Sequence record: PQ850622.1
DNA length: 64,000 bases
From: Escherichia phage OliverMaurmann_Bas86
Reading direction: 5' to 3' (one strand)
Below the pieces are notes generated by a model, which saw nothing but the letters and a program-made list of their open reading frames with translations, did not search any database and had not been told where the DNA came from. The translations under genes and the position numbers were made by a program. How positions within the stretch are numbered: the stretch's first letter is position 1; each line of letters opens with the position of its first letter. This document shows positions 5,220-57,399 of this stretch, one piece after another.

Positions 5220-6278
5220 ATGGCAAATCCAACTTTATTTGTATCGTACGACCAGAATGGTAAAAAACTTTCTTTTGCTAACTGGATTTCTGTCCTGTCT
5301 CCGCAAGACACTCCGTTTGTGTCTATGACTGGTAAAGAGTCTATTAACCAGACTATTTTCAGCTGGCAGACCGATGCTCTGGCGAGCGTAGATGCTAACA
5401 ACGCCCACGTCGAAGGCTCTCGTGCTGAAGACGGTGAAATGAAACCGACTGTAATCAAGTCCAACGTTACTCAGATTCTGCGTAAAGTTGTTCGTGTTTC
5501 TGATACTGCTAACACCACCGCTAACTACGGTCGTGGTCGTGAGCTGATGTATCAGCTGGAGAAGAAAGGTAAAGAGATTAAGCGTGACCTCGAGAAAATC
5601 TTGCTGTCCGGTCAGGCTCGTACCGACATTCTGGCAGACCAGTATCTGACTAACTCTGCAACTGATCCTGCTGTTGTAGGTCAGAACGATACTTCAGCTG
5701 CACGTAAGACTGGTGCTTTCCAGTTCCTGTGTGCACACAATGGTGTTGCTGGTGGTGTTGTTAAGAAAGAAGATGGTCCTGCTGACCCGGATACCGGTGC
5801 AGTAACTGTTAAAGTTGCACAGAATGCTTCTAACCCGACTTCTAACATCGGTTTTGATGAAGCTGACATCTTTGATATGACTCTGCAATTGTATACCGCT
5901 GGTTCTGAAGCAGACATCATCATGATTAACCCTGCTCACGCTAATATCTTTGCTAAGCTTCAGGAAAACTCTGTTGGTTCTCGTCAGCGTATCTTTGAGA
6001 ACACCAAACAGTTCATCTATGAAGTTAACAGCATCACTGACCCGCTGGGCCAGAGCTATAAAATCATCGTTAACCGTTGGATGCCTGCTGATGCAGTTTA
6101 CTTCTTCCGCAGCTCTGACTGGACTCAGATGGTTCTTCGTGCTCCGAAACGTACTGAACTGGCGAAAGATGGTTCTTACGAGAAATGGATGATCGAAATG
6201 GAAGTTGGTCTGCGTCACCGCAACCCGTATGCTTCCGGTGTACTGTTCACCGCTGCGGGAAAGGTGGAAGCGGCGTAA
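5220..6278 (+). CDS. Major capsid protein
   Basis: 352 aa ORF following scaffold; strong RBS (TAGGAGC); size and position typical of HK97-fold capsid protein. Confidence 0.8.
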   Translation: MANPTLFVSYDQNGKKLSFANWISVLSPQDTPFVSMTGKESINQTIFSWQTDALASVDANNAHVEGSRAEDGEMKPTVIKSNVTQILRKVVRVSDTANTTANYGRGRELMYQLEKKGKEIKRDLEKILLSGQARTDILADQYLTNSATDPAVVGQNDTSAARKTGAFQFLCAHNGVAGGVVKKEDGPADPDTGAVTVKVAQNASNPTSNIGFDEADIFDMTLQLYTAGSEADIIMINPAHANIFAKLQENSVGSRQRIFENTKQFIYEVNSITDPLGQSYKIIVNRWMPADAVYFFRSSDWTQMVLRAPKRTELAKDGSYEKWMIEMEVGLRHRNPYASGVLFTAAGKVEAA

Positions 6279-7675: not shown

Positions 7676-7742
7676 TTTAAGACCCTTATAAGGAGATATG
7701 TAATGTATTCTCTTTGTCTATACACAACTAGGAGGACAAGTT

Positions 7743-8255
7743 ATGGCAATGCCTGACTTAAAGGGTGTTTTTACTTATAACCAAGACACTGGACACCTCT
7801 TTTGGTCTATGAGTAATGTTTATAATAAGAAGAAAGGACAGAGAGCTGGTTGCATTAATAACAAAGGCTACAGAGTTCTGACCTTTAAAAATAAATCTTA
7901 TTTAGAGCACAGAATCATTGCAGAGTTATTCTTACCTAAAGTGGAAGGAAAGAATCAGATTAATCATAAGAATGGGATTAAGGATGACAACCGCCTAGAA
8001 AACTTAGAATGGTGCACAGGTAGTGAGAACTGCTTACATGCTATTAGTATAGGTCTTAGAGAAGTGAAAAGTTTAGAGGAAAATCCAAACGCTAAACTTT
8101 CTAAAGAGGATGCTCTATTCTGTCTTCAGAACTATAAGCCTAGAAGCCGTCAGTTCGGAGCTAGAGCATTGGGTCGAAGATTTGGAGTATCTAAAAGTAC
8201 AATCAGCCTTCTTGTGAAAGGCGAAAACTGGAAGGAGTTATTATATGATGCCTGA
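7743..8255 (+). CDS. HNH homing endonuclease (HNH_3-type with N-terminal Y..DTG.L.W motif)
   Basis: 170 aa; motifs GYRVLTF...HRIIAELF...INHKNGIKDDNRLENLEW; preceded ~40 nt upstream by TAATGTATT. Confidence 0.8.
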   Translation: MAMPDLKGVFTYNQDTGHLFWSMSNVYNKKKGQRAGCINNKGYRVLTFKNKSYLEHRIIAELFLPKVEGKNQINHKNGIKDDNRLENLEWCTGSENCLHAISIGLREVKSLEENPNAKLSKEDALFCLQNYKPRSRQFGARALGRRFGVSKSTISLLVKGENWKELLYDA

Positions 8256-8988
8256 TGTTCAATATCCCATCAATACCTACGGATGGCTCAAGAAAGCTGT
8301 GTCCCTCTGGGCTGACAGGGATGATGATGAATTTGTTAATCAGATTCCAAACTTTATTAACTTTGCAGAGAAAGAAATCTATCGTAACTTACGAATTCCT
8401 CCTCTGGAAAAAGAAGTATATTTAGATATTAAAGATGGTGTGGCTTTTATTCCACCAGACTACTTAGAAGCTCAGTGGATGATGAGAGCAAGTAATGGAC
8501 ATATGTTCCGAGTAACTTCTCCAGAAGAGTTAGATTGGCTGAAAAGAAATAACTCAGTAAACCCAACTAACTGGAATCAGGGAGAAGTGAGTTTTACTAG
8601 GTTGGGAAGTCGGTTCCTGTTCTACCCAGCCATCAATGCTGATACTCCGGTCTACCCTGATGATGGAAGCCCTCTTATTCCAGCGGAGAATTCGGTAATT
8701 CTTAGCTATTATGCAGACCCTCCGGAGTTTCATGAGGATTCTGATACAAGTGCAATTTTAACAATAGCTCCAGAGCTTCTTCTATATTTCACATTACGTC
8801 ATGCAAGCTTATTTGTCCAAGATGATAATGGGGTTCAGAAGTGGTCTGCTTTAGGGAAAGCTATTCTAGATGAGGTAGTTGAGCAGAGTAAGAAAGCTGA
8901 ATACTCAGGCTCTCCTCTAGTTATTCCTAGAACTATTGACCGTCTTCACAGCTCTCGTGAGTTGTATGGAATCAAACACTACAGTTAA
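8245..8988 (+). CDS. Virion structural protein (function unassigned)
   Basis: 247 aa ORF with GAAGGAG RBS, between HNH insert and tail fiber genes. Confidence 0.45.
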   Translation: MMPDVQYPINTYGWLKKAVSLWADRDDDEFVNQIPNFINFAEKEIYRNLRIPPLEKEVYLDIKDGVAFIPPDYLEAQWMMRASNGHMFRVTSPEELDWLKRNNSVNPTNWNQGEVSFTRLGSRFLFYPAINADTPVYPDDGSPLIPAENSVILSYYADPPEFHEDSDTSAILTIAPELLLYFTLRHASLFVQDDNGVQKWSALGKAILDEVVEQSKKAEYSGSPLVIPRTIDRLHSSRELYGIKHYS

Positions 8989-21309: not shown

Positions 21310-22362
21310 ATGTCTCTTTTCGGTTCTGCTCCTAAATCTAAGACTACGGTAGCTCCGTCTTCTCAGGTTGATGCTCTTCTGAAACAGATTGTAGCAAATG
21401 CTCAGGCTATGAATCAAAACGATCAAGGTTTTATTGGTCGTAACGTAGCGGGTTTTAATGAAAACCAAACAGCAGCTCTTTCTAATTTAGCAAATTCTAA
21501 CACACTCAACCAACTCAGTCAGATGTACACCCCTAGAACTCAACAAGGGTTGGACCAGATGAATGAGTTGGCTCAGAAATATCAAAACCTAGTTAATAAA
21601 GGTGGTATCACTGCTCAGGATGTTAATAATTTTAGCTCTGGATTGAATAGCTCTGCTTTAGCTAAGTCTACAGGTAAAGCTGCTGCTAATGTATCTCTTG
21701 GTAATGGTTCTGATTCAGGTTCTCTTAGACGTGCTGCTGCTCAAGGTGCTGCTCTTTCTTCAGCGAACACTAATCTCTCTCGCTCTATTCAGGGTAAAAA
21801 TATGGGTGTTAACACTCTTCTGAATAACAACTCTTATCAGCAAGGTTTGCTAAACGCTCAATCTGGTTTAGCAGGTCAGAACTTGAATCTAGGTGCTGCT
21901 GGAGTACAAGCTGGTCAACAGGCAATACAGAATCAGCTTACTGCTGGTAATCTTCAACAACAGCAAGATCAACTCCAAGCTAACAACAATTGGGAGAATG
22001 CTATTGGCAATCAACAGTACGGTTGGAATCAGCTTAACAATCAGCTTAATGTATTAAACTCAGTAAGCCCTATGGCTGGATACACTATTACTAATAAAGG
22101 TGCTGCCCCTAGTGCTTCGCAACAAATCCTTGGTGCTGGCGTTACAGGTCTTGGTATTGCTGGTCGTTTAGGTGCTTTTACCCCTAACCAGCAAACTACT
22201 AATGCTTGGAACTCATACAATGCTTCTGGAGGTCAAGCCGGATTGGCTGGTCCTATGATTGGTGGCTCAAACCTGTCTCAACAGAATGGTCAGAGCAACT
22301 GGTTATCTACCGCAGGAAGTAATATCTTAGGTGGTGTTCTAGGAGCCTTTGGAGCAAATTAA
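21310..22362 (+). CDS. Gln/Asn-rich low-complexity virion protein
   Basis: 350 aa, very Q/N/G/S/A-rich; N-terminus MSLFGSAPKSKTT parallels the next gene. Confidence 0.5.
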   Translation: MSLFGSAPKSKTTVAPSSQVDALLKQIVANAQAMNQNDQGFIGRNVAGFNENQTAALSNLANSNTLNQLSQMYTPRTQQGLDQMNELAQKYQNLVNKGGITAQDVNNFSSGLNSSALAKSTGKAAANVSLGNGSDSGSLRRAAAQGAALSSANTNLSRSIQGKNMGVNTLLNNNSYQQGLLNAQSGLAGQNLNLGAAGVQAGQQAIQNQLTAGNLQQQQDQLQANNNWENAIGNQQYGWNQLNNQLNVLNSVSPMAGYTITNKGAAPSASQQILGAGVTGLGIAGRLGAFTPNQQTTNAWNSYNASGGQAGLAGPMIGGSNLSQQNGQSNWLSTAGSNILGGVLGAFGAN

Positions 22363-22371
22363 GGAGGAGCT

Positions 22372-23340
22372 ATGGCTTTATTCGGTGGTGGGAGTAGCAA
22401 GACTACTTCTAAAATGACAAGACCTGACTACATTCAGTCCTATATTGATCAGTTGGTCAATCAGGTTAATAACACTAGTTCAGGCGATTATGTGTATCGA
22501 GAAAATGTTGGACTTAATCAAAACCAGCAAGAAGCTCTGAACAATCTATCACAATCTGGTGCATTAGGTGCACTTTCTTCTCAGTATATGGATGCTGCTC
22601 AATCTGGCTTAGGTTATCTAGATAATGCATACTCTGGATATAACAACCTGTCTAACTCTGGTCAAATCACTGGGGAACAGATTGGTGCTCTTGCAGGCCA
22701 GCTCTATGACGATGAGGCTGTGCAAGCAGCTATTGCAGCGAATAATGAACAAACCCAACAGAGTTTGGCTAGGAATGCACTTCCTCAAATCTCTCAGCAG
22801 TTTGCTGGTCAGCAAGGTTCTGGTGCACGTATGGCTAAATCTTTTGCTCAAGGTGATGCTCTGAACCAGATGCAGAACACAGCAACCAATATTACTAATA
22901 GTGCTTATGACTCCGCTCTAACTCAAGCACAGAACATTCTTTCTGGTAATAGACAAACACAAGCATCTGCTTTGGGTGGTTTATCTAACATTGGCTCCAA
23001 TCTTGCTAATCTAGGAAACCAAGCTGGTCAGTTATCACAACAGCAAATGATGAATCAGTGGAATGCAGGACTGCAACAGCAGCAACAACAGCAGTCTGAT
23101 TTGAACAATGCTTATGAGAATGCTCAGAATGCCGCTAATTGGGGTTGGCAGGATATTAACAATCAACTAGGTGCTGCTGGGGTTCTTAATGGAGCTTTAG
23201 GGACAACCACAACTACTAAAACATCTGGTGGTAGTGGAGGCTTCCTAGGTGGTGCTGCTAGCGGTGCTGCTGCTGGCTCAGCTTTTGGCCCTTGGGGTGC
23301 TTTAGCTGGCGGTGTTATCGGTGGCTTAGCTAGCTCTTAA
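22372..23340 (+). CDS. Gln/Asn-rich low-complexity virion protein (paralog of 21310-22362)
   Basis: 322 aa; N-terminus MALFGGGSSKTTS; Q-rich with a poly-Q stretch; Gly-rich C-terminus. Confidence 0.5.
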   Translation: MALFGGGSSKTTSKMTRPDYIQSYIDQLVNQVNNTSSGDYVYRENVGLNQNQQEALNNLSQSGALGALSSQYMDAAQSGLGYLDNAYSGYNNLSNSGQITGEQIGALAGQLYDDEAVQAAIAANNEQTQQSLARNALPQISQQFAGQQGSGARMAKSFAQGDALNQMQNTATNITNSAYDSALTQAQNILSGNRQTQASALGGLSNIGSNLANLGNQAGQLSQQQMMNQWNAGLQQQQQQQSDLNNAYENAQNAANWGWQDINNQLGAAGVLNGALGTTTTTKTSGGSGGFLGGAASGAAAGSAFGPWGALAGGVIGGLASS

Positions 23341-25022: not shown

Positions 25023-25047
25023 TCTAAGACCTAAGTCCTATCTCTTA

Positions 25048-25056
25048 TAATGTATA
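25048..25056 (+). promoter_or_regulatory. TAATGTATA motif, candidate phage sigma-dependent promoter element
   Basis: Exact 9-mer ~37 nt upstream of the 25093 ATG; reverse complement also found upstream of the SSB gene. Confidence 0.35.
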
Positions 25057-25092: not shown

Positions 25093-28000
25093 ATGGCTAA
25101 TTTAAAATCGTGGGAAGAAGCTTCCAAAGCTCCTGCGTATCTGAATGCCTCTCCAGAGCAACAGGCTCAAATGAGAGAACAATACAAGGCAGCAGGGGGC
25201 ACTATTCCTGAGACTCAACCACAAGAGCAACCACAACAAGAAGAACGAGGTGTTATTGGGGAGTTTGCTCAAGGTGTGTCTAACGCTCTTCAATCAGGTG
25301 GTGCTAACATTGCAGCTAGTGCTGCTAAAGGTTTAGGTGGGCTGGTAGAGATTGGTGAAAACCTAACTGGTTCGGAAACAAGCTATGGTAAGCGCATTCA
25401 AGAGAACTCTAAGCAATTGCTGGAAGAACGCTTATCCAAGATAGAAGATGGTTTTGGTAAAACAGCTGGTCAGTATGCTGGTGTTGCTGCTGATATTGGT
25501 TTGACAGTTGCAAACCCTGCTGTTGCTGCTGCTGTTATCGCAGCTCGTGAAACAGGTCGTGCTTATGCTGATCAAACTCCTAAAGAAGATGAAGATAAGT
25601 CAATCTTAGATGCTGCTCTTGTTGGTGGTGCTAACTACGCTGCTCAGAAGATACTTCCGGGCATGACTGGTACAGCTTCTACTACTCTAGGTCGTGTAGG
25701 ACAAAGCGTAGCCTCTAACGCGGTTGCTGGTGCTAAGGGTGGTGCTATTGTTGGTGCTGCTGAAGCTCAGAACAAATATGGAGATGATACTACTCTAGCT
25801 AATGTCTTAGAAGGGGCTATTGAAGAAGGTGCACTCGGTGCCGCTTATGGTGGGGCGATTGGTGGGGTTCATGGGTTAATAAGTCGTCCTAGTCCTCAAG
25901 TGTTTGATCGTACTCCTGAGCATGTTAAGACTGACATTGCTGCTGAAGATGAGGCTATTCGTAAAGCTGCTAACGCTGATGAACTTCGTGAAGCCTATGC
26001 TAAAGCTGAGAATGCTAATGCTGCCTCTGCTTTAAACCTTCTGGATGAAAATGGTTTCCGAATCACAGATGCAGTTGCTATGGACTCTCCTGCTGTTCAA
26101 CGTATATTAAATACAGATCAAAATCGTGCAGAGAAGGCTGCTACGGTTCAGAAAGATAGTTCTAACGTTCCCGGTCTTAATCCTTTAGCTTCTCCTAAGA
26201 AGACTCAAGGTAAAGCTTTTGCTGACAATGAGTACAACCAGAAACAAGCTGTGGCAATGAAAGATGCAATGGCTGACTACACTAAAGATAACACCAAAGC
26301 CCTTACTGATGTTCTAGACAATCTAGACCGAGAGTTAGTAGCTCTGAGAGCAAGTGGTGATTTTACTGGTAGTGCTATTGACATTAAAAACCGTACTCAA
26401 GCTGATCGTGATTTTATTGATGCTTATAAAACTTTTTACAGTGAAGCTAATCGTTTCAAAGCTCGTGATGGTGAAGACCTAAACAACTTCATTGATAAAG
26501 CTACTCAGTTGCAGAAGCTCTCTGAAAATGTTTCTCCAGAAATGAAGAAGGCCATTGGTGGATTAAAGAAACTAAAAGGTATGCCTGAAGGTTTTAACCC
26601 TATCCAAGATGCTTTCACTCTGAATAATACAGCTAAGTTCATGAGTAACCAAGACCGTGGTTGGACCTCTCTGACTGATGACGGTTTTCGTGAAGCTCCG
26701 GCTCCTGTGTTAGTTAAGAATCCTCTCGGTGCAGCCAAGTATGTACTTAACCGCTTTACTTCCGATCGTGCTCGTGCTCAACGTGAGAAGCAACAGTCAG
26801 CTAATAGCGAAGCTATCCGCTCTTTGGCTAGGGCTGATTTAGAAGTACAACGAGCTAGGACTCAGGCTGAAGAAGCAAGAGCAAAAATGGAAGAAGAACC
26901 AACCACAGAAGACATCAAATTCCGTACTCAAAATGATGCACCTTCCGAACCGGTTCGTGAGGAGCCTTCTGCTACTACTGTGACAGAAGAAATTCCTTCC
27001 TCTCCAGCTCCAACTGAAACACCTCTTACTGCGAGGGATCTAGTTGCTCAAAGACGTGCTCTCCAACAAGCAGAGCTTAGACGTCAAGAAACTGAAGCTG
27101 CTCAGGCTCAAGAAAGTGCTACACCAGAACCTGAACCACAGCAAGAAGCTCTTACAGCTAGAGAATTAGTAGCTCAGCGTAGGGCTGTAGCAGAGGCTAA
27201 GAAACGTCAAGAGGCAGAGGAAGCAGAACGTGCTAAAGAAGCTCCTGAGGAGGCCGTAGAAGAGCCTAAAGAGAAACCTGAGCCATTACCTGCTCGTGCT
27301 CCTAAAGCTCCTGAGAAGGCTCCTGAGCCTGTTAAACCATCACTCGGTGTAGAGCGTCTGGCTTCTATGTCAACTGCTGCCCGTCAGGCAACAAAAGATC
27401 GTGCTGACCGATTTGCTCGTTCTTTGTATTCGGCTGCTGCTAAAGCTAAAGCTACTGCGGAAAACTTCCTTTCTTATAAAGGAGACCCTAAAGAGCTTAT
27501 GCGTCGTATCCGTCAGGAAGACCAAGCAAACAACACACAGCGTCATGAAGAGATGGCTAGAAATCAACTGGCTTCCCAGCAAGGCATTGCTTCTGCTAAA
27601 TCTCAACATGTTCGTGCCTCTTTTGCTGATTGGGTAAAAGAACGTGGGTTGCCTTCTGATATCGCTACTAAAGCCTTACGGGCTGAAGAGAAAGGTTTAG
27701 GTGGGAACGTCACAAGCCTAGATTCACTGAAACGAAGAGCTGAACGTTTATATCAGAAACAGAGAGATGATGAATTTGACCGTCTCTATCGAGAGGCTCT
27801 GGAAGAGAATAAAGCGTTTGACAAGAAAGATGCTCCTAAACTGGTAGATCAGAAGAAAGAACTTCAGGATGAAATTGGTACACTGCTTGATGCAGAACCT
27901 TTACGTCCTGCTCAGAAAGATGCTATGCGTAAGATCATGGAAGACTTTGTGGAGAGTAAGTTTAAATCTTCAGAGAAAGCTGGAAGGGTTGAGGCTTTGG

Positions 28001-31587: not shown

Positions 31588-32176
31588 AGAGATCTCTCCG
31601 TGTCTCTTCAATAATCCACTCTAAATCATCAACTGCCTCTTCTACAGAACGGTCATTAAAGAGGAGGTAGGTTGGTAGGTTTGTTCCTTCAATATAAGAA
31701 CGGGAGTCCCCTTCAAAGGAGCAGCCATCTCGGAGAATCTGAACTACTCGAACATAGAAGTGTTTCTCTAGTTCTTCAACTTCAGCTTTGAACCCACCAT
31801 CAGAGAAGACGATAACATCATTCTGTGATGGGATACGTTGTTGAATACTGCTAACAGCAAGTTTACCCATGCAGGTCTCACCAAACATAGGTTTCAGATA
31901 ATCCTCACTAGTTGCAATCATCAAGTCTCGAACTGACTTACCGCCCCATTCAGGACGGATATGTTCTTTCCACTCACGGTCGTTGTACAGCTCCATGAAC
32001 TTATAAAGAGGGAGACCTAATGCAGCAGCAGCCACCCGATACATAGGCTCCTTAAAAGCCTTTACATGCGGTCTAAACTCAGTGTTACCAGCGGTCTTCT
32101 CTAACCAAGCATTAGCGATTGTATCTTTACCACAACCCGGAGGTCCATTTAGAATTACTACTAATGGTTTACTCAT
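31580..32176 (-). CDS. P-loop nucleotide kinase (dNMP kinase-like)
   Basis: 198 aa; Walker A VVILNGPPGCGKDT near N-terminus, resembling phage dNMP kinases. Confidence 0.55.
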   Translation of the reverse strand: MSKPLVVILNGPPGCGKDTIANAWLEKTAGNTEFRPHVKAFKEPMYRVAAAALGLPLYKFMELYNDREWKEHIRPEWGGKSVRDLMIATSEDYLKPMFGETCMGKLAVSSIQQRIPSQNDVIVFSDGGFKAEVEELEKHFYVRVVQILRDGCSFEGDSRSYIEGTNLPTYLLFNDRSVEEAVDDLEWIIEETRRDLYV

Positions 32177-32826
32177 TATTGAATCATCCCTTGAAGATCT
32201 TCTTTATCAAAGTGCTTCTCTACTACCGCTTCATACAGATCACGATTCTCCGAATAACGGCGATAGAAGGTTCCGTGTGAAATTCCCAGCTCTTGTTGGA
32301 TGTGATCATGAGGAATACCGAGGAAGAGCATTGAGAACATACTTGCCATCTTGCGGTTTTCCATAATATCACTTAGGTCTTGGAAGAAGAAAAAGATTCT
32401 AGATTCCAAGAATGGGTCTCCAGTAGAATCATGCTTATCCATAGCAATCTCTAAAGGACTTTCCCATGAATTCATCTCGGGAGGTCTAAACATATCAGCC
32501 TCTGGAATAGAATAGATACGTCTGTCTCCAACTGTCTGACGATTAGAACGAATCGACCAGATGATATTCTTCACACGATAAGTCATGTGTTCAATATCTT
32601 TTTCATCGGTAAGCAGTAGTTCTTCTTGCTTTGCAAATACAAAACGCCAAGAGTTCAGTAACACTTCCTGAGCAACATCCTCTGCTTCGTGATAATCTTT
32701 AATGTCGTACATAAAATACTTATGCACAACTTTCCAATTCTCTCGATAGAATTCATCGAAGGTTGGGTAGTACTTAATAGGTATGCCATGAATACGATAG
32801 CGTGTGGGTGTTGTCTTTTTCTTCAT
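32176..32826 (-). CDS. Phage-encoded sigma-70-family sigma factor
   Basis: 216 aa; region-2-like [12 protein letters not shown] and C-terminal HTH-like [16 protein letters not shown]. Confidence 0.7.
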
Positions 32827-32850
32827 AAGTCATCCTTAACTTACTTTACA

Positions 32851-34122: not shown

Positions 34123-34145
34123 AAAAAAGCCACCCGAAGGTGGCT
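34123..34145 (-). terminator. Rho-independent terminator after SSB gene (AGCCACC-UUCG-GGUGGCU + U6 on - strand)
   Basis: Read directly; near-identical hairpin recurs at 37031-37054. Confidence 0.6.
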
Positions 34146-34167: not shown

Positions 34168-34908
34168 TTAGAATGGGCTATCATCTTCTTCAAAGGTTGA
34201 TTGCGGCTCTTCGTTAATGGTAGGAATACTTGGAGTAGCATCTTTCTGTTCAGTGTCAGAAGCTTTAGTAACTTCACGACCAGCCAGAGGGATATTCTTA
34301 GCATCGTTAGCTTGAGTCAAGAGGTTACGTTGGAATGGGAAGATTGCTTGATAAGCAGCTAAGTTAGCGTCAGTCTCAGCATACGGTTCGAAGAAGATCA
34401 ACTCACTACGAGGAGCACCTACCGCGTCACGATATTTAGTCGGGATTGGAGTGATGCTTTTAATGGAGTTTTTCTTCTCACCAGCTTTATTGGTGTAAGA
34501 GTTAACCAGAATGTTAACAGGCTGACCTAACAGCATATCTTTAAACCAACCCAAATCACCTTTCAGTGCTTGAACACTTGGGTCGATCATTTTAATCAGA
34601 TTTAGAATACCAGAGTTCTTAGCTCGTGGGTTTACATCAAAAGATTTAAACTGGCAAGCAGGACGAGGGTCCAGAGGTTTGCCTTCATTATCAGTCCCTG
34701 TTGCATCTACGCCAATCAGCTCAAAAGCTAAGTCCATACGGAAAGCTGGGTTCTTAGGAGTAACTGCTTTGGTTTTAGGGTCAATCCAAGGGTCACGATT
34801 GTGAACACCCAAACCTACAACACGAACAATACGTGCTTCGTACTCACCATCAGGGATTACATCGTAGTTGGATTTACGGGATACAGACAGTTCAGGGATC
34901 ATAGACAT
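34168..34908 (-). CDS. ssb: Single-stranded DNA-binding protein
   Basis: 246 aa; acidic C-terminal tail ending EEDDSPF, like the SSB C-terminal DDDIPF-type interaction tail. Confidence 0.65.
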   Translation of the reverse strand: MSMIPELSVSRKSNYDVIPDGEYEARIVRVVGLGVHNRDPWIDPKTKAVTPKNPAFRMDLAFELIGVDATGTDNEGKPLDPRPACQFKSFDVNPRAKNSGILNLIKMIDPSVQALKGDLGWFKDMLLGQPVNILVNSYTNKAGEKKNSIKSITPIPTKYRDAVGAPRSELIFFEPYAETDANLAAYQAIFPFQRNLLTQANDAKNIPLAGREVTKASDTEQKDATPSIPTINEEPQSTFEEDDSPF

Positions 34909-34967
34909 ATTAATATTTCCTTATATAGATTTAAGATTGTTGCTCTCTTTGAGCGGTTTGTATACTA

Positions 34968-34976
34968 TATACATTA
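34968..34976 (-). promoter_or_regulatory. TAATGTATA motif (on - strand), candidate promoter element for SSB
   Basis: Exact 9-mer in coding orientation ~60 nt upstream of SSB ATG. Confidence 0.35.
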
Positions 34977-35243
34977 CACTTATACAGATAAGGTTCTATT
35001 ATACTATAACCTTTTTGGTAGTAGATAATGACAAGTAGTAATGTATATATGGTATAGCTAGTAAAGCTATTGCAGGCTTGTATATTGGGCAATCATTGTA
35101 ACCCTTGCAAGTACCGAAGGGCAGGAGACACCTGCGAGATAAAAATAGAGAATTAAGGAATCCTTGATTTAGGTTGTGGGGACTCCTAGGGACTTTGATT
35201 CTCTATTAAAATCAAAAGAAAACTTAACTTAAAACAATAACTT

Positions 35244-35882
35244 CTACCATTCTAAAAGACCTTTAAAACTAGTTTGTTCTACTGTTCTCTGATAAGGTAA
35301 GTTAGATTCTGCTTGTTTGCTTAGCATCTCTTGTACTTTATCAGTAATTGGATAATCTTTTTGTAATAAAGAAGCTACCCACTCTTTCCTACTTTCCAGC
35401 TCTTTTCTAATTTCTTGCAGAGACACAGCTCTGTAATCAATTTGTTCCATAGAGGTACAAAAATATCTCCAATCTTTGATAGTAGAATTATGAGTATGAG
35501 CATAGATATTATACTTTCCTCTCATTTCATCAGAGTGAATAGGGATATGAGTTACCCAAAATTCTTTGTATTTATAATCACCACTGATGTGTCTAAAGAC
35601 TTTCATCATATCAGGTAGAAGTTCTAATCTATCATGGTTCCCTAAGACAAGATGTTTCTCTCCCTTTATTTCAGCGATAATATCAAGTGCATACTTCTCA
35701 AACACCCAGTCACCTGTAAAGAAAGTTTTATCACGTTTAGTAACATGATCAAACGCTGCTAAGATAGCTTTATCATGTTCTTCAATACTACTAAACTTCT
35801 TCCTAAAGTTACAGATATTACGATGGCCTAGGTGACCATCACCTGCAAAATAAACTTCAGCCACTTTCGTATGTGTCCTCAT
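35244..35882 (-). CDS. Calcineurin-like metallophosphoesterase
   Basis: 212 aa; motifs GDGHLGH, TGDWV, LGNHD, HTHN. Confidence 0.8.
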   Translation of the reverse strand: MRTHTKVAEVYFAGDGHLGHRNICNFRKKFSSIEEHDKAILAAFDHVTKRDKTFFTGDWVFEKYALDIIAEIKGEKHLVLGNHDRLELLPDMMKVFRHISGDYKYKEFWVTHIPIHSDEMRGKYNIYAHTHNSTIKDWRYFCTSMEQIDYRAVSLQEIRKELESRKEWVASLLQKDYPITDKVQEMLSKQAESNLPYQRTVEQTSFKGLLEW

Positions 35883-36626: not shown

Positions 36627-37015
36627 CGTATCACCAGAGGCTCTTCAGAGTACACAGGAGAGGCTATTTCTACCGGAGGTGCTGCTCTAAGGTCATTAAG
36701 CCTTACGCCCTTCAGCATACCATCTAGGTGGTCCATTTTAGGGATACCGACAGGGAAGTCATCAATCCAAACATCCACAAAGAAACCCAAGCTCTGAGTG
36801 ACAGAATCCTTCTGAACACCGTTGCAAAAGATAACAGGAATATCTAGACTTGCTGCATCTGCTAGAAGCTCTTCATTTGAATACCCATTGGGCTGAGCAA
36901 AACGATAAGTGACAATACGAACATCGTGTCCACGAGATTTCATAAGACCTACAATGTGGGTCCACATCTCCTTGTCCACTGTAAAAGTGTCATCATAATC
37001 TAAACCAATATTCAT
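36623..37015 (-). CDS. HAD-like phosphatase (putative)
   Basis: 130 aa; N-terminal IGLDYDDTF (DxDxT-like) and later VWIDDFP. Confidence 0.45.
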   Translation of the reverse strand: MNIGLDYDDTFTVDKEMWTHIVGLMKSRGHDVRIVTYRFAQPNGYSNEELLADAASLDIPVIFCNGVQKDSVTQSLGFFVDVWIDDFPVGIPKMDHLDGMLKGVRLNDLRAAPPVEIASPVYSEEPLVIR

Positions 37016-40648: not shown

Positions 40649-40963
40649 TTAACTAGAGCTTAAAGCTCCTTTGCGACCGCCTGCTGATTTTCCAGCACGA
40701 TCTCCACTTTTGCCGCCGTTCGAGCGATTTCGAGAGACTGATTCAACACGTAAGTTACTTGACGCATTAGAACCTCCCGACTTGATTGATCGTTTATGTC
40801 CAACGTCTTTACCTCGGACAGCAGCTTTTCCATCGCGCTTTTCAACGATGCGACGTGCACGGTGGCGCTGAGCATCTCCGCTCTTGCTACCAACACCTGT
40901 CTCCCCACGTTTGATTGCGGTACGTCTTTCTTGCTCATAATCTCTTTTCGCCTTATCCGTCAT
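40649..40963 (-). CDS. Highly basic Gly/Ser/Lys/Arg-rich small protein
   Basis: 104 aa; GAGGA RBS 9 nt upstream of ATG. A 92-aa helical ORF (40660-40938) overlaps on the same strand in another frame. Confidence 0.4.
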   Translation of the reverse strand: MTDKAKRDYEQERRTAIKRGETGVGSKSGDAQRHRARRIVEKRDGKAAVRGKDVGHKRSIKSGGSNASSNLRVESVSRNRSNGGKSGDRAGKSAGGRKGALSSS

Positions 40964-41333
40964 TGTTAGTTATCCTCTGATTGAAAGTGTGAATTGCGTG
41001 GCAGTTAGCGCAGAGGATTCTGCACTTCTTCATCTCTGCCTTCACTTGAGAAATTGATCTCGTGTGACCTTGAGATAGCTCAAAGGATTTTTCAGAGGGG
41101 TTAATATGGTCAAACTGGAGAGCAGAAGCGTGTTCTTTATAGCCACACAGAGAGCATCCGTAAAAGGTTTTAACTCTTCTGATGAATACTAATTGTCGAT
41201 TTCTTCTCTCTTCATTGTAAAGCCTACGCTTCTCCCTATTAGCTGGGTCCGCGTACCTGCACCTGTCTGAACAGTATTTTTGAAATACAAACCTCTTCTC
41301 AAATACTTCTTGACAAGTAGGACAAACATCCAT
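40953..41333 (-). CDS. HNH endonuclease (zinc-binding)
   Basis: 126 aa; CPTC...C..C, then FDHINPSEK...CANCHAIH; preceded ~45 nt upstream by TAATGTACT. Confidence 0.7.
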   Translation of the reverse strand: MDVCPTCQEVFEKRFVFQKYCSDRCRYADPANREKRRLYNEERRNRQLVFIRRVKTFYGCSLCGYKEHASALQFDHINPSEKSFELSQGHTRSISQVKAEMKKCRILCANCHAIHTFNQRITNNDG

Positions 41334-41408
41334 GTTACTAACTCCTCCTTAAAATCCTTATAGGTAAGTACATTACATAGCATCAAGCACAGCTATCATA
41401 TGCTACTT

Positions 41409-42146
41409 TCATGATTTTTCAGATTCCATTGCTTTAACAATAGCTTTACAGAAACCTGAACGAACAATATCGTCTGATTCACCATCTACTAGAGCGGCAA
41501 ATTCAAATAAATTGTGACGGTATATGAAATCAGTAGCCCAATCTAGACCACTCTCACCACGCATGTCGTGCTGATTAGTGTCCCCCATACAGAACATCTG
41601 AGAGGTTTCACCAAGACGTGTCATGATTGAATATGCTTCATCAGGAGTAGTATTCTGGAACTCATCAACAATTACAATAGAATCGTTGAATGAGCGACCA
41701 CGGAGATATTCCAGAGGTACGAACTCAATGTTACCGTTGCCAATTTGACACTCATAGAAGCCTTTACCATAACGCTGAGTGATAACATCAACAATAGGCA
41801 TTAAGTATGGTTCAAACTTCTCACGAAGCCCACCGGGAAGTAATCCAAGACTGTTACCCATACCAACAGCAGGTCGGCTTAGGATAATCTTCTCAATCTT
41901 CCCACTTTTCAGAGCATCAATAACAGTTGTTGTGATAACATAAGTCTTACCACAGCCAGCAGGAGCATCTGTGAATACAACCTGTTTGGTTTTAATTGCA
42001 TCAAGCAGCTCACTCTGGAATTGGTTCTGAGGTACTACCGGCTTAGCAAGAACTACTTCTTCAAATTCCCGCTTTCCTTTCTTGGTGACGAGAGCTTCAC
42101 GACGTAATTCTCTCCGTGATGCTTTCCGAGATTCTCTACGACTCAT
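41409..42146 (-). CDS. phoH: PhoH-like ATPase
   Basis: 245 aa; Walker A FTDAPAGCGKTYV; strong GGAGG RBS. Confidence 0.85.
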   Translation of the reverse strand: MSRRESRKASRRELRREALVTKKGKREFEEVVLAKPVVPQNQFQSELLDAIKTKQVVFTDAPAGCGKTYVITTTVIDALKSGKIEKIILSRPAVGMGNSLGLLPGGLREKFEPYLMPIVDVITQRYGKGFYECQIGNGNIEFVPLEYLRGRSFNDSIVIVDEFQNTTPDEAYSIMTRLGETSQMFCMGDTNQHDMRGESGLDWATDFIYRHNLFEFAALVDGESDDIVRSGFCKAIVKAMESEKS

Positions 42147-45914: not shown

Positions 45915-45966
45915 ACAATATTCTTATACTGTATATACATTTGAGAGTTATCATATCTACTACCAA

Positions 45967-51428: not shown

Positions 51429-51614
51429 TTATTCTACTTCGAAGTGTTTGATCACACCAGTCAACACATCAGATTGGAATGTACCCACTAGCTCTGTACC
51501 TCGGAAGAAGTTAACACTTGTTCCAAGTGATTCAAAGCGATCTGCTTGAATGTCCAGAGATTGAATATTTCCTTCTGCTGACATTGTACGAAACATGATT
51601 GTGTATTTATTCAC
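51429..51614 (-). CDS. Hypothetical small protein
   Basis: 61 aa ORF. Confidence 0.3.
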   Translation of the reverse strand: MNKYTIMFRTMSAEGNIQSLDIQADRFESLGTSVNFFRGTELVGTFQSDVLTGVIKHFEVE

Positions 51615-51853
51615 AGACTTGTTACTCCCTTATCTGCTTGTGCAATTGCGATGATACGCTCAGCACATTCCATTGAATATTTATCACCTCGTTTGAGGAA
51701 GGTGATGATTGCAGAGAACTGATTACCAATCATTCTCTTATTTGTGATACCGAACTCTTCACAGAGTTGGTTGATAGCTTTACGAGAGCCTACAATCAGA
51801 GGCTCTTTTTCTTCGGTCATTCCACGGCTGATCAAATCTTCGATAGACAACAT
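51611..51853 (-). CDS. Hypothetical protein
   Basis: 80 aa ORF. Confidence 0.4.
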   Translation of the reverse strand: MLSIEDLISRGMTEEKEPLIVGSRKAINQLCEEFGITNKRMIGNQFSAIITFLKRGDKYSMECAERIIAIAQADKGVTSL

Positions 51854-56776: not shown

Positions 56777-57399
56777 AATGATTCCACCAACTCTACATTA
56801 TATGATGACAGGTCTGAAGAAATATGCTTGAACTTCTCCAGAAGGTTTAAAGATTGACGACCATTGTCGCCATAACCAGCTTCAAGAAGCACGTTTCCAA
56901 CGTAAGCCCCTTTGTAATAAACTTTTCCATCGACAGGATTGATATAGATGAAACGAGTAACCAACCCTTCAAACTCTGGATTAAACAGGTTGTACACCAA
57001 TTCACCCGGAATCGAACGACCGAGAGAAGGAGGTGCACCGCGAAGTTTGTTTCCCATCAAACCTTTAGCTCTCTGACGAACAGGGTTGATATGGGTCCAG
57101 CTCACCATGTTATTGCCATGCTGAAGGTATCCTACATCTGGAGATTCCAGAATAAGGCTGTGATCAAACACTGGTATATTGCTAACAATCTGACGTTCAA
57201 ACTGACCTTCAGAGTTTTTAGTCCAACGTTCTGCCTCAAACACTAAAGACATTTCAGCGTCGTGTGAGTAGTCGTCGATATCAAAGTTACCTTGCTGACG
57301 AACATCAAGCACATATAGAGGGAGGTTTTTACCATCAGGTGATCGCTGAGCAATCCATGTTCCACAATAATAGTGTTGAAAATCTCTTAACAAGCTCAC
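56773..57399 (-). CDS. Hypothetical protein within amidoligase cluster
   Basis: 208 aa; GTG start with AAGGTGA RBS. Confidence 0.45.
   Translation of the reverse strand: MSLLRDFQHYYCGTWIAQRSPDGKNLPLYVLDVRQQGNFDIDDYSHDAEMSLVFEAERWTKNSEGQFERQIVSNIPVFDHSLILESPDVGYLQHGNNMVSWTHINPVRQRAKGLMGNKLRGAPPSLGRSIPGELVYNLFNPEFEGLVTRFIYINPVDGKVYYKGAYVGNVLLEAGYGDNGRQSLNLLEKFKHISSDLSSYNVELVESL

Follow-up and report, generated by a model that had tools for sequence, protein, structure and literature searches.

A phiEco32 gp36-type sigma factor, its co-factor and their predicted promoters in a phiEco32-like Escherichia phage

The gp36/gp79 transcription system of phage phiEco32 was reportedly described, together with the primary mapping of its promoters, by Pavlova et al. 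in 2012. Gp36 is also reported to co-purify with the host polymerase when infected cells are analysed. In this phage, gp36 forms a holoenzyme with the Escherichia coli RNA polymerase core and initiates transcription at promoters with the consensus tAATGTAtA (PMC8948821; PMC4331800; PMC12276001). Six mapped promoters precede genes 6, 13, 26, 40, 58 and 68 (P6 to P68), and their starts lie 6–8 bp downstream of the consensus (PMC8948821; PMC4331800; PMC4281155). Cryo-EM structures of the phiEco32 gp36/gp79 system are available (PDB 9M7Y and 9M7Z; Xu et al. 2025), of which 9M7Y contains E. coli RNA polymerase with gp36, gp79 and promoter P68 (PMC12276001). In the structural work, gp36 showed sigma2-like and sigma4-like folds; AATGTA spanned positions -14 to -9, centred at -11.5, and base contacts were found at -37G and -34A, the latter base being contacted by the C-terminal domain of the sigma factor (PMC12276001). 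In phiEco32, gp79 displaces region 4 of the host sigma factor and co-activates gp36 (PMC12276001). Both the sigma factor and the small regulator are part of the group's core proteome (PMC9965538).

The DNA analysed here (hereafter the window) is a stretch of 64,000 nucleotides from Escherichia phage OliverMaurmann_Bas86 (PQ850622.1), in which late genes occupy the + strand up to ~30 kb and - strand genes lie beyond (Table 1). The 4-kb neighbourhood of its sigma factor gene was 96%–97% identical in DNA to Escherichia phages PAS59, SU7 and Bas87 and matched 98 phiEco32-like records (Gordonclarkvirinae). Judged by its sequence, the window is that of a phiEco32-like coliphage of the Gordonclarkvirinae near SU7, PAS59 and Bas87. 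We consider it about 95% probable that an ortholog of gp36 acts as a sigma factor on the host polymerase, is assisted by an ortholog of gp79 and starts transcription at five sites in the window. This reading builds on homology, on the conservation of contact residues and on the placement and conservation of the sites, all of which were observed directly.

Table 1. Sigma factor gene, co-factor gene, predicted promoters and non-coding element in the window
Feature	Position	Strand	Details
Predicted late promoter, P13 ortholog	7678..7709	+	TAAGAC-N18-AATGTA; 9-mer TAATGTATT at 7701-7709; predicted +1 ~7716
Predicted late promoter, P26 ortholog	25025..25056	+	TAAGAC-N18-AATGTA; 9-mer TAATGTATA; predicted +1 ~25063
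Sigma factor gene, phiEco32 gp36 ortholog	32176..32826	-	ATG start, 216 aa
Predicted middle promoter, P40 ortholog	34968..34998	-	TAGAAC-N17-AATGTA; 9-mer TAATGTATA; predicted +1 ~34961
Seventh promoter-like site	35016..35047	+	TGGTAG-N18-AATGTA; 9-mer TAATGTATA at 35039-35047; predicted +1 ~35054
Conserved non-coding element following the seventh site	35052..35207	+	5' hairpin, 35052-35059 with 35065-35073
Small hairpin in the non-coding element	35121-35125 with 35131-35135	+	
Long hairpin in the non-coding element	35144-35207		T-run after the hairpin only on the - strand
Candidate promoter, P58 position	41367..41398	-	TGATAG-N18-AATGTA; 9-mer TAATGTACT at 41367-41375; predicted +1 ~41360
Predicted middle promoter, P68 ortholog	45934..45965	-	TGGTAG-N18-AATGTA; 9-mer AAATGTATA at 45934-45942; predicted +1 ~45927
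phiEco32 gp79 ortholog	51611..51853	-	80 aa; 76% identity; PDB 9M7Y_G, E = 5e-37

The open reading frame at 32176–32826 had been read in the initial annotation as a 216-aa phage sigma factor with segments resembling regions 2 and 4 of sigma-70, and its limits, length, strand and start codon were confirmed exactly. The protein had a full-length match in PDB 9M7Y, chain F (residues 1–215, E = 2.8e-117), and 171 of 214 aligned residues (80%) were identical to those of phiEco32 gp36, which bears out the kinship with phiEco32-like phages that had been suggested for it. PHROG 1740, 'RNA polymerase sigma factor', matched as well (E = 9e-43). When the published list of gp36 contact residues (PMC12276001) was compared with the window protein, 22 of the 23 were identical. 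These included all contacts of the -10-like element (E79, H80, Y83, R84, W90, S91, S94 and N95), the -35 contacts Y186 and R187 (Y188 and R189 by window-protein numbering) and the complete acidic patch for the clamp helices (D44, E47, E49, D50 and E54; 5/5). The sole change, M138 to L, is in the hydrophobic groove for the flap-tip helix, of which four of five residues were identical. The proposed resemblance to sigma-70 regions held for the fold and not for the Pfam profiles. Sigma70_r2 stayed below its gathering score (15.9 bits vs a cut-off of 24, E = 0.011, residues 26–61 only) and Sigma70_r4 gave no match in the protein, yet the solved ortholog has sigma2-like and sigma4-like folds. Thus, the kinship with sigma-70 is structural and distant, and the weak scores are in keeping with the literature, where gp36 is described as a distant sigma homolog.

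The gp36 family is narrow: in a database of 5.8 billion proteins, clustering at 90% identity gave 20 clusters, the most distant at 45% identity; in IMG/VR, one locus was found by a single-protein scan and eight by an alignment-based scan. The Bas87 record annotates the sigma gene as 'RNA polymerase sigma factor', and SU7 and PAS59 are among several close GenBank records that name the sigma and co-factor genes 'hypothetical'. The 13 published contact residues of gp79 were all identical or conservatively replaced in the window ortholog. A divergent clade of relatives (L009–L011) carries a sigma factor that is ~53% identical, with the changes H80N and R84Q, and lacks AATGTA at the syntenic promoter positions. 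As for expression of the sigma gene itself, a scan for sigma70-type promoters near it found nothing exceeding the shuffle expectation, and a terminator-like hairpin that follows the gp40 homolog, at 34128–34145 (-), speaks against simple co-transcription of the gene from P40. The copy of TAATGTAAA at 32845 (-), 18 nt before the sigma ATG, was rejected as a promoter: it has G at -34, and its phiEco32 counterpart reads AATGTT at a different distance.

The 9-mer TAATGTATA is the published gp36 promoter consensus tAATGTAtA. Three exact copies were found in the window, of which those at 25048–25056 (+) and 34968–34976 (-) had already been listed in the initial annotation and that at 35039–35047 (+) had not. 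In the phiEco32 record, the six promoter sites are at 1677, 9101, 26014, 36640 (-), 42945 (-) and 46870 (-). When the six were aligned in register, a weak upstream element T-R-R-N-A-S emerged at positions -38 to -33, in which the A (-34) was invariant. The window opens with the start codon of the terminase large-subunit gene, and P6 is therefore outside it; sites at the positions of the other five were present. The 7701 site aligned with P13 without gaps, with homologous sequence on both flanks, and is an intergenic match to the bipartite pattern of upstream element and AATGTA. The P26 equivalent, likewise an ungapped and bipartite match, precedes the gene of the large virion protein (1481 aa, start at 25093), as had been proposed for this copy. 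Similarly, the P40 equivalent aligned without gaps with phiEco32 P40 and precedes the gp40 homolog (start at 34908). The label 'SSB' given earlier to this gene (34168–34908) did not hold, as the protein matched PHROG 6599 (unknown function) and had no Pfam or PDB sequence match. The P58-position site precedes an inserted HNH gene (40953–41333) and then the gp58 homolog (40649–40963); its flanks are non-homologous to P58 of the relatives, and C-T replaces T-A after the hexamer. The P68 equivalent (45934–45942, -), which the earlier promoter list had missed, is near-identical to phiEco32 P68, keeps -37G and -34A and matches the bipartite pattern. The four sites that the list had named are at the P13, P26, P40 and P58 positions; together with the gp36 orthology and the published consensus, this supports the original proposal of a phage sigma factor redirecting host RNA polymerase.

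Conservation was assessed in the window and up to five relatives with sigma factors at least 79% identical, and about 12 of the ~98 related genomes were inspected at base level. AATGTA was invariant at P26 in five genomes (the window and four relatives) and at P40 and P58 in six each, with flanks that vary or have been replaced; at P40, every close relative retained the hexamer, including those with replaced upstream DNA. With AATGTA taken as -14 to -9, the predicted leaders are 27–53 nt long. Three further near-matches were rejected as promoters. The copy of TAATGTATT at 22047 (+) is inside the gene 23 homolog and is kept in phiEco32 and also in the divergent clade without intergenic promoters, so that its conservation reflects coding constraint. 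The other two, at 56792 (-) and 62168 (-), do not have A at -34, and phiEco32 has no equivalent of either.

The third exact 9-mer belongs to a seventh promoter-like site. Its upstream element (TGGTAGTAGAT) is the same as that of P68, and the site is a bipartite match; it stands back-to-back with P40, with 62 bp between the 9-mers, and is oriented against the middle genes. Phage phiEco32 has this site too (36681–36712). In 10 diverse genomes, including some with large insertions nearby, both elements were invariant and the 18-nt spacer was variable. The 335-nt intergenic region was matched in 98/98 related records, 90 of them over at least 80% of its length. The site and the element downstream were unannotated in the records inspected among the 98, a few of which annotate other features under the match. 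The site is absent from the six-promoter lists of PMC8948821, PMC4331800 and PMC4281155, a comparison outside which the primary mapping (Pavlova 2012) lies. As a feature outside the described six-promoter set, it may be new.

Downstream of this site, the 3' ~95 nt of the non-coding element (about 35113–35207) were almost invariant across relatives. An RNAalifold consensus, based on nine sequences only, showed covariation at two pairs of the 5' hairpin (UA/GC and CG/UA/AU), which starts at the predicted +1 and contains several G-U pairs valid on the + strand only. Fold z-scores were -2.7 (+) and -2.8 (-). The near-invariance of helices 2 to 4 makes them uninformative on RNA structure, and the divergent clade added no covariation because it has no counterpart of 35052–35207. 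Covariance models of Rfam 15 gave no match at E ≤ 1 in 34800–35400; the whole window had no Rfam match at the gathering score, and its tRNA scan was empty. No + strand 3' end was evident downstream of the site. On the - strand, the long hairpin looks like the terminator of the upstream operon.

Plain counts of the promoter motif were not convincingly above chance and are weak evidence. The exact 9-mer occurred 3 times vs 0.69 expected, with at least three copies in 5 of 100 shuffles; with one mismatch allowed, TAATGTATA gave 26 matches vs 18 expected, and the core hexamer AATGTA showed no enrichment in the window (38 observed vs 43 expected). These figures, along with near-matches that are clearly no promoters (22047, 32845, 56792 and 62168), are what would be seen if the matches were chance copies of an AT-rich 9-mer and the protein annotation alone were meaningful. 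Since frequency alone is weak, the promoter case is carried by the -35-like element together with position and orthology. Of the 38 AATGTA copies, seven were intergenic, although such DNA makes up 4.2% of the window (binomial P = 9e-4; P = 0.016 in a composition-aware shuffle within gaps). The pattern TRRNAS-N18-AATGTA, built from the six mapped phiEco32 promoters and thus independently of the window, matched five times vs 0.42 expected, a count reached in 0 of 100 shuffles (maximum 2); the N17 version added the P40 equivalent. On the question of motif frequency raised at the outset, plain counts were not clearly above chance; position gives a clearer answer, and the bipartite pattern is the strongest test. 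Of the six bipartite matches, all of them intergenic, the five with a base-for-base alignment to experimentally mapped promoters were co-oriented with the downstream genes. In the ungapped alignment of window sites with phiEco32 promoters, AATGTA and the -34 A were invariant in 13/13 sequences. Given, in addition, the conservation of the sites across relatives despite varying flanks, an origin of the matches by chance is highly improbable. Still more improbable is a protein that serves as an ordinary helix-turn-helix regulator and not as a polymerase-bound sigma factor. The C-terminal helix-turn-helix matched only DUF1492 (E = 0.028) and TetR_N (E = 0.065) in Pfam, both sub-threshold as was Sigma70_r2, and a DUF1492-like or TetR-like role could be read from this. 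Against it, the protein shares 80% full-length identity with one that cryo-EM located at the sigma2 and sigma4 positions on E. coli RNA polymerase (PMC12276001), and it keeps the clamp-helix contacts and, bar M138 to L, the flap-tip groove.

The balance is different for the seventh site. It could be an active gp36-type promoter in phiEco32-like phages that makes a conserved, structured non-coding RNA of at least ~155 nt (35054–35207), a proposal we make tentatively, with some doubt. The chances are about even that 35016–35047 is no working promoter. It could be a relic duplicate of P68, or one of the two arms of a 12-bp inverted repeat (GTAATGTATATA) whose conservation has another cause, for instance a role as a protein-binding site, as part of an origin or in the - strand terminator region. 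A site without function as a promoter would fit the lack of a coding gene downstream on the + strand, the T-run that follows the long hairpin on the - strand only, as expected of a terminator of the upstream operon, the silence of the near-invariant helices 2 to 4 on RNA structure and the absence of the site from the published lists. It is harder to reconcile with promoter elements that stay invariant in 10 genomes while the spacer between them varies freely, with a -35-like element, -37G and -34A shared with the structurally characterised P68, and with a hairpin at the predicted +1 that has compensatory changes and G-U pairs working on the + strand only. If transcribed, the putative + strand RNA would be antisense to the upstream middle operon at its terminator region and 3' end. 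Its role could be that of an antisense or insulating RNA; alternatively, it could prime or activate a replication origin. Should the seventh site be active, a system that six promoters are thought to describe completely would gain an RNA component or an origin.

For the gp36-type reading of the sigma factor and its five sites, we infer polymerase binding, transcription starts and timing from the phiEco32 literature. Early genes would be transcribed by the host sigma70 holoenzyme. The gp79 ortholog would then bind the clamp and push sigma region 4 from the RNA exit channel, and this displacement would shut off transcription by sigma70 and sigmaS. The gp36 ortholog is predicted to bind the core polymerase, with its N-terminal sigma2-like domain on the clamp helices, where it would read and melt the -10-like AATGTA (-14 to -9); W90 and Y83 would stack at the upstream fork junction, and A-14, A-13, T-12 and G-11 would be read. 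The C-terminal sigma4-like domain would sit on the beta flap tip and read a weak -35-like element (a purine at -37 and A at -34), probably clamped in place by helix 1 of gp79. Middle and late genes would then be transcribed by the gp36-ortholog holoenzyme, from two presumptive late starts at the promoters 7701 (P13) and 25048 (P26) and three presumptive middle starts at 34976 (P40), 41375 (P58 position) and 45942 (P68).

Two of the five sites, at 7701 and 41375, are directly followed by HNH genes. The near-matches that had been noted upstream of two such genes proved real, each 33 nt before the ATG (7743 and 41333), and the HNH identity of both downstream frames was upheld by matches to Pfam HNH_3 (E = 1.3e-12) and PHROG 2255 (E = 1.4e-28). 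The gene at 7743–8255 is fused in frame to codons 1–5 of gene 13; it would thus use P13 together with the gene 13 ribosome-binding site and ATG, and its 3' end rebuilds the gene 13 start together with a new ribosome-binding site. Among 50,697 phage records, no near-identical DNA was found for the body of this gene and no megablast match for the HNH gene at 40953–41333 with its promoter region. With both genes directly behind gp36 promoters, these appear to be mobile genes exploiting the transcription signals of the phage. Separately, the capsid gene contains the known -1 frameshift site GGGAAAG at 6257–6263, which leads to a long Ig-like extension.

Among other described systems, Salmonella phage 7-11 also has a phage sigma factor, SaPh711_gp47, that acts on the host polymerase, with promoters at the same relative positions (PMC8948821). 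In contrast, SaPh711_gp47 is only ~15% identical to gp36, its promoters have the bipartite form GTAAtg-N16-aCTA, and phage 7-11 has no gp79 homolog, no middle gene class and no host shut-off (PMC8948821). The different sigma factor and promoter and the lack of gp79 there rule out a system of the 7-11 type for the window phage. In T4, AsiA and MotA divide the task in a comparable way, in that a small protein disables region 4 of sigma70 and a second protein supplies promoter specificity (PMC12276001). The proteins are non-homologous, however, and a host sigma70 is remodelled there, whereas a complete replacement sigma would be used here. The T4 late sigma factor gp55 likewise relies mainly on a -10-like element. 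The two-domain layout of sigma2 and sigma4 is shared with group IV (ECF) sigma factors, and 'ECF sigma factor' is the label in several GenBank records and in the PDB entry. The window protein differs from ECF sigma factors in falling under the Sigma70_r2 threshold and in lacking Sigma70_r4 by sequence. Moreover, helix alpha1 of gp36 is rotated, its C-terminal alpha4 is short, and it binds the flap-tip helix differently (PMC12276001).

The closest match is thus the gp36/gp79 system of phiEco32 itself, with which the window shares 80% identity in the sigma factor, 76% in the co-factor, identical DNA-contact and clamp-contact residues, the promoter consensus and the genome positions of P13, P26, P40, P58 and P68. 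The differences consist of two HNH genes, one separating P13 from gene 13 and the other separating the P58-position promoter from gene 58, the flanking DNA at the P58 position, a P40 spacer of 17 nt instead of 18 nt, and small sequence differences. By every feature tested, all of them read from DNA and protein sequence, the window sigma factor is a member of the phiEco32 gp36/gp79 system. Because that system has been solved, the finding is already known; its value for the window is an annotation with the sigma factor, the co-factor and five predicted promoters that divide it into late and middle transcription units.

Beyond the six promoters mapped in phiEco32, a seventh promoter-like site of the type recognised by gp36, the phiEco32 sigma factor, was found in the orientation opposed to that of the middle genes. 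This site was unchanged across 10 diverse relatives, including phiEco32 itself (36681-36712), and was followed on its 3' side by a conserved structured element consisting of a 5' hairpin, a small hairpin and then a long hairpin, with covariation in the 5' hairpin. The element had no match in Rfam, and no mention of the site or the element was found in the literature searched, which did not include the primary mapping paper (Pavlova 2012).

Coordinates of the features identified in the window
Feature	Position	Strand	Remark
Seventh gp36-type promoter-like site and structured element	35016-35207	+	TGGTAGTAGAT-N-TAATGTATATA
Long hairpin of the conserved element	35144-35207	+	
Terminator-like hairpin (strong)	34128-34145	-	AGCCACCTTCGGGTGGCT then TTTTTT
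HNH endonuclease gene	7743-8255	+	In-frame insertion at gene 13 homolog
Second HNH gene	40953-41333	-	Cassette region 40940-41420
Promoter region before second HNH gene	41334-41408	-	
Major capsid gene	5220-6278	+	Stops just past GGGAAAG
Slippery site GGGAAAG	6257-6263	+	

The terminator-like hairpin lies directly 3' of the gp40 homolog (34168-34908, -); therefore, most transcripts from its promoter, P40, may end short of the sigma gene. The initial annotation had labelled this homolog SSB, an assignment for which Pfam, PHROG function and PDB sequence comparisons yielded no supporting match. Its C-terminal tail is acidic and finishes on Phe (...EEDDSPF), a feature of many SSB proteins from phages and bacteria.

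A shift in promoter specificity is possible in a divergent clade of three IMG/VR contigs (L009, L010 and L011; 82-90 kb), in which the sigma factor is ~53% identical to the window protein and has the substitutions H80N and R84Q at residues that contact DNA. AATGTA was absent before the gp26, gp40 and gp58 homologs of this clade, and a different conserved block (CTATATAATGGATAAAGCATATAGC...) preceded its gp40 homolog. Even this clade, which lacks the intergenic AATGTA promoters, retained the promoter-like TTGGAATC-N-TAATGTATT within the gene 23 homolog (22025-22055, +; phiEco32 23006-23036). This sequence encodes the peptide WNQLNNQLNV. Coding constraint is the simpler explanation for its retention, and it was rejected as a promoter.

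Two HNH genes occupy promoter-proximal positions. The first is inserted behind the fifth codon of the gene 13 homolog, whose promoter (P13), ribosome-binding site and ATG (MAMPD...) it has taken over. At its 3' end it overlaps a reconstituted start for gene 13 (ATGATGCCTGAT; 8245-8260, +) with a new ribosome-binding site, GGAAGGAG. The body of this gene had no megablast matches among 50,697 phage records; likewise, the second HNH gene and its promoter region had none in the phage collection. The second cassette stands in place of the P58 sequence seen in relatives, and the bipartite gp36 promoter pattern (TRRNAS-N18-AATGTA) still fits there. This mobile gene may have carried in its own gp36-type promoter or selected for one.

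A 485-aa ORF with many Ig-like repeats overlaps the major capsid gene in the -1 frame and runs to 7642 (+); the extension is long in this phage. The slippery site is that of the -1 frameshift already known from Kuravirus-like phages, where it yields a longer isoform of the capsid protein (PMC9965538).
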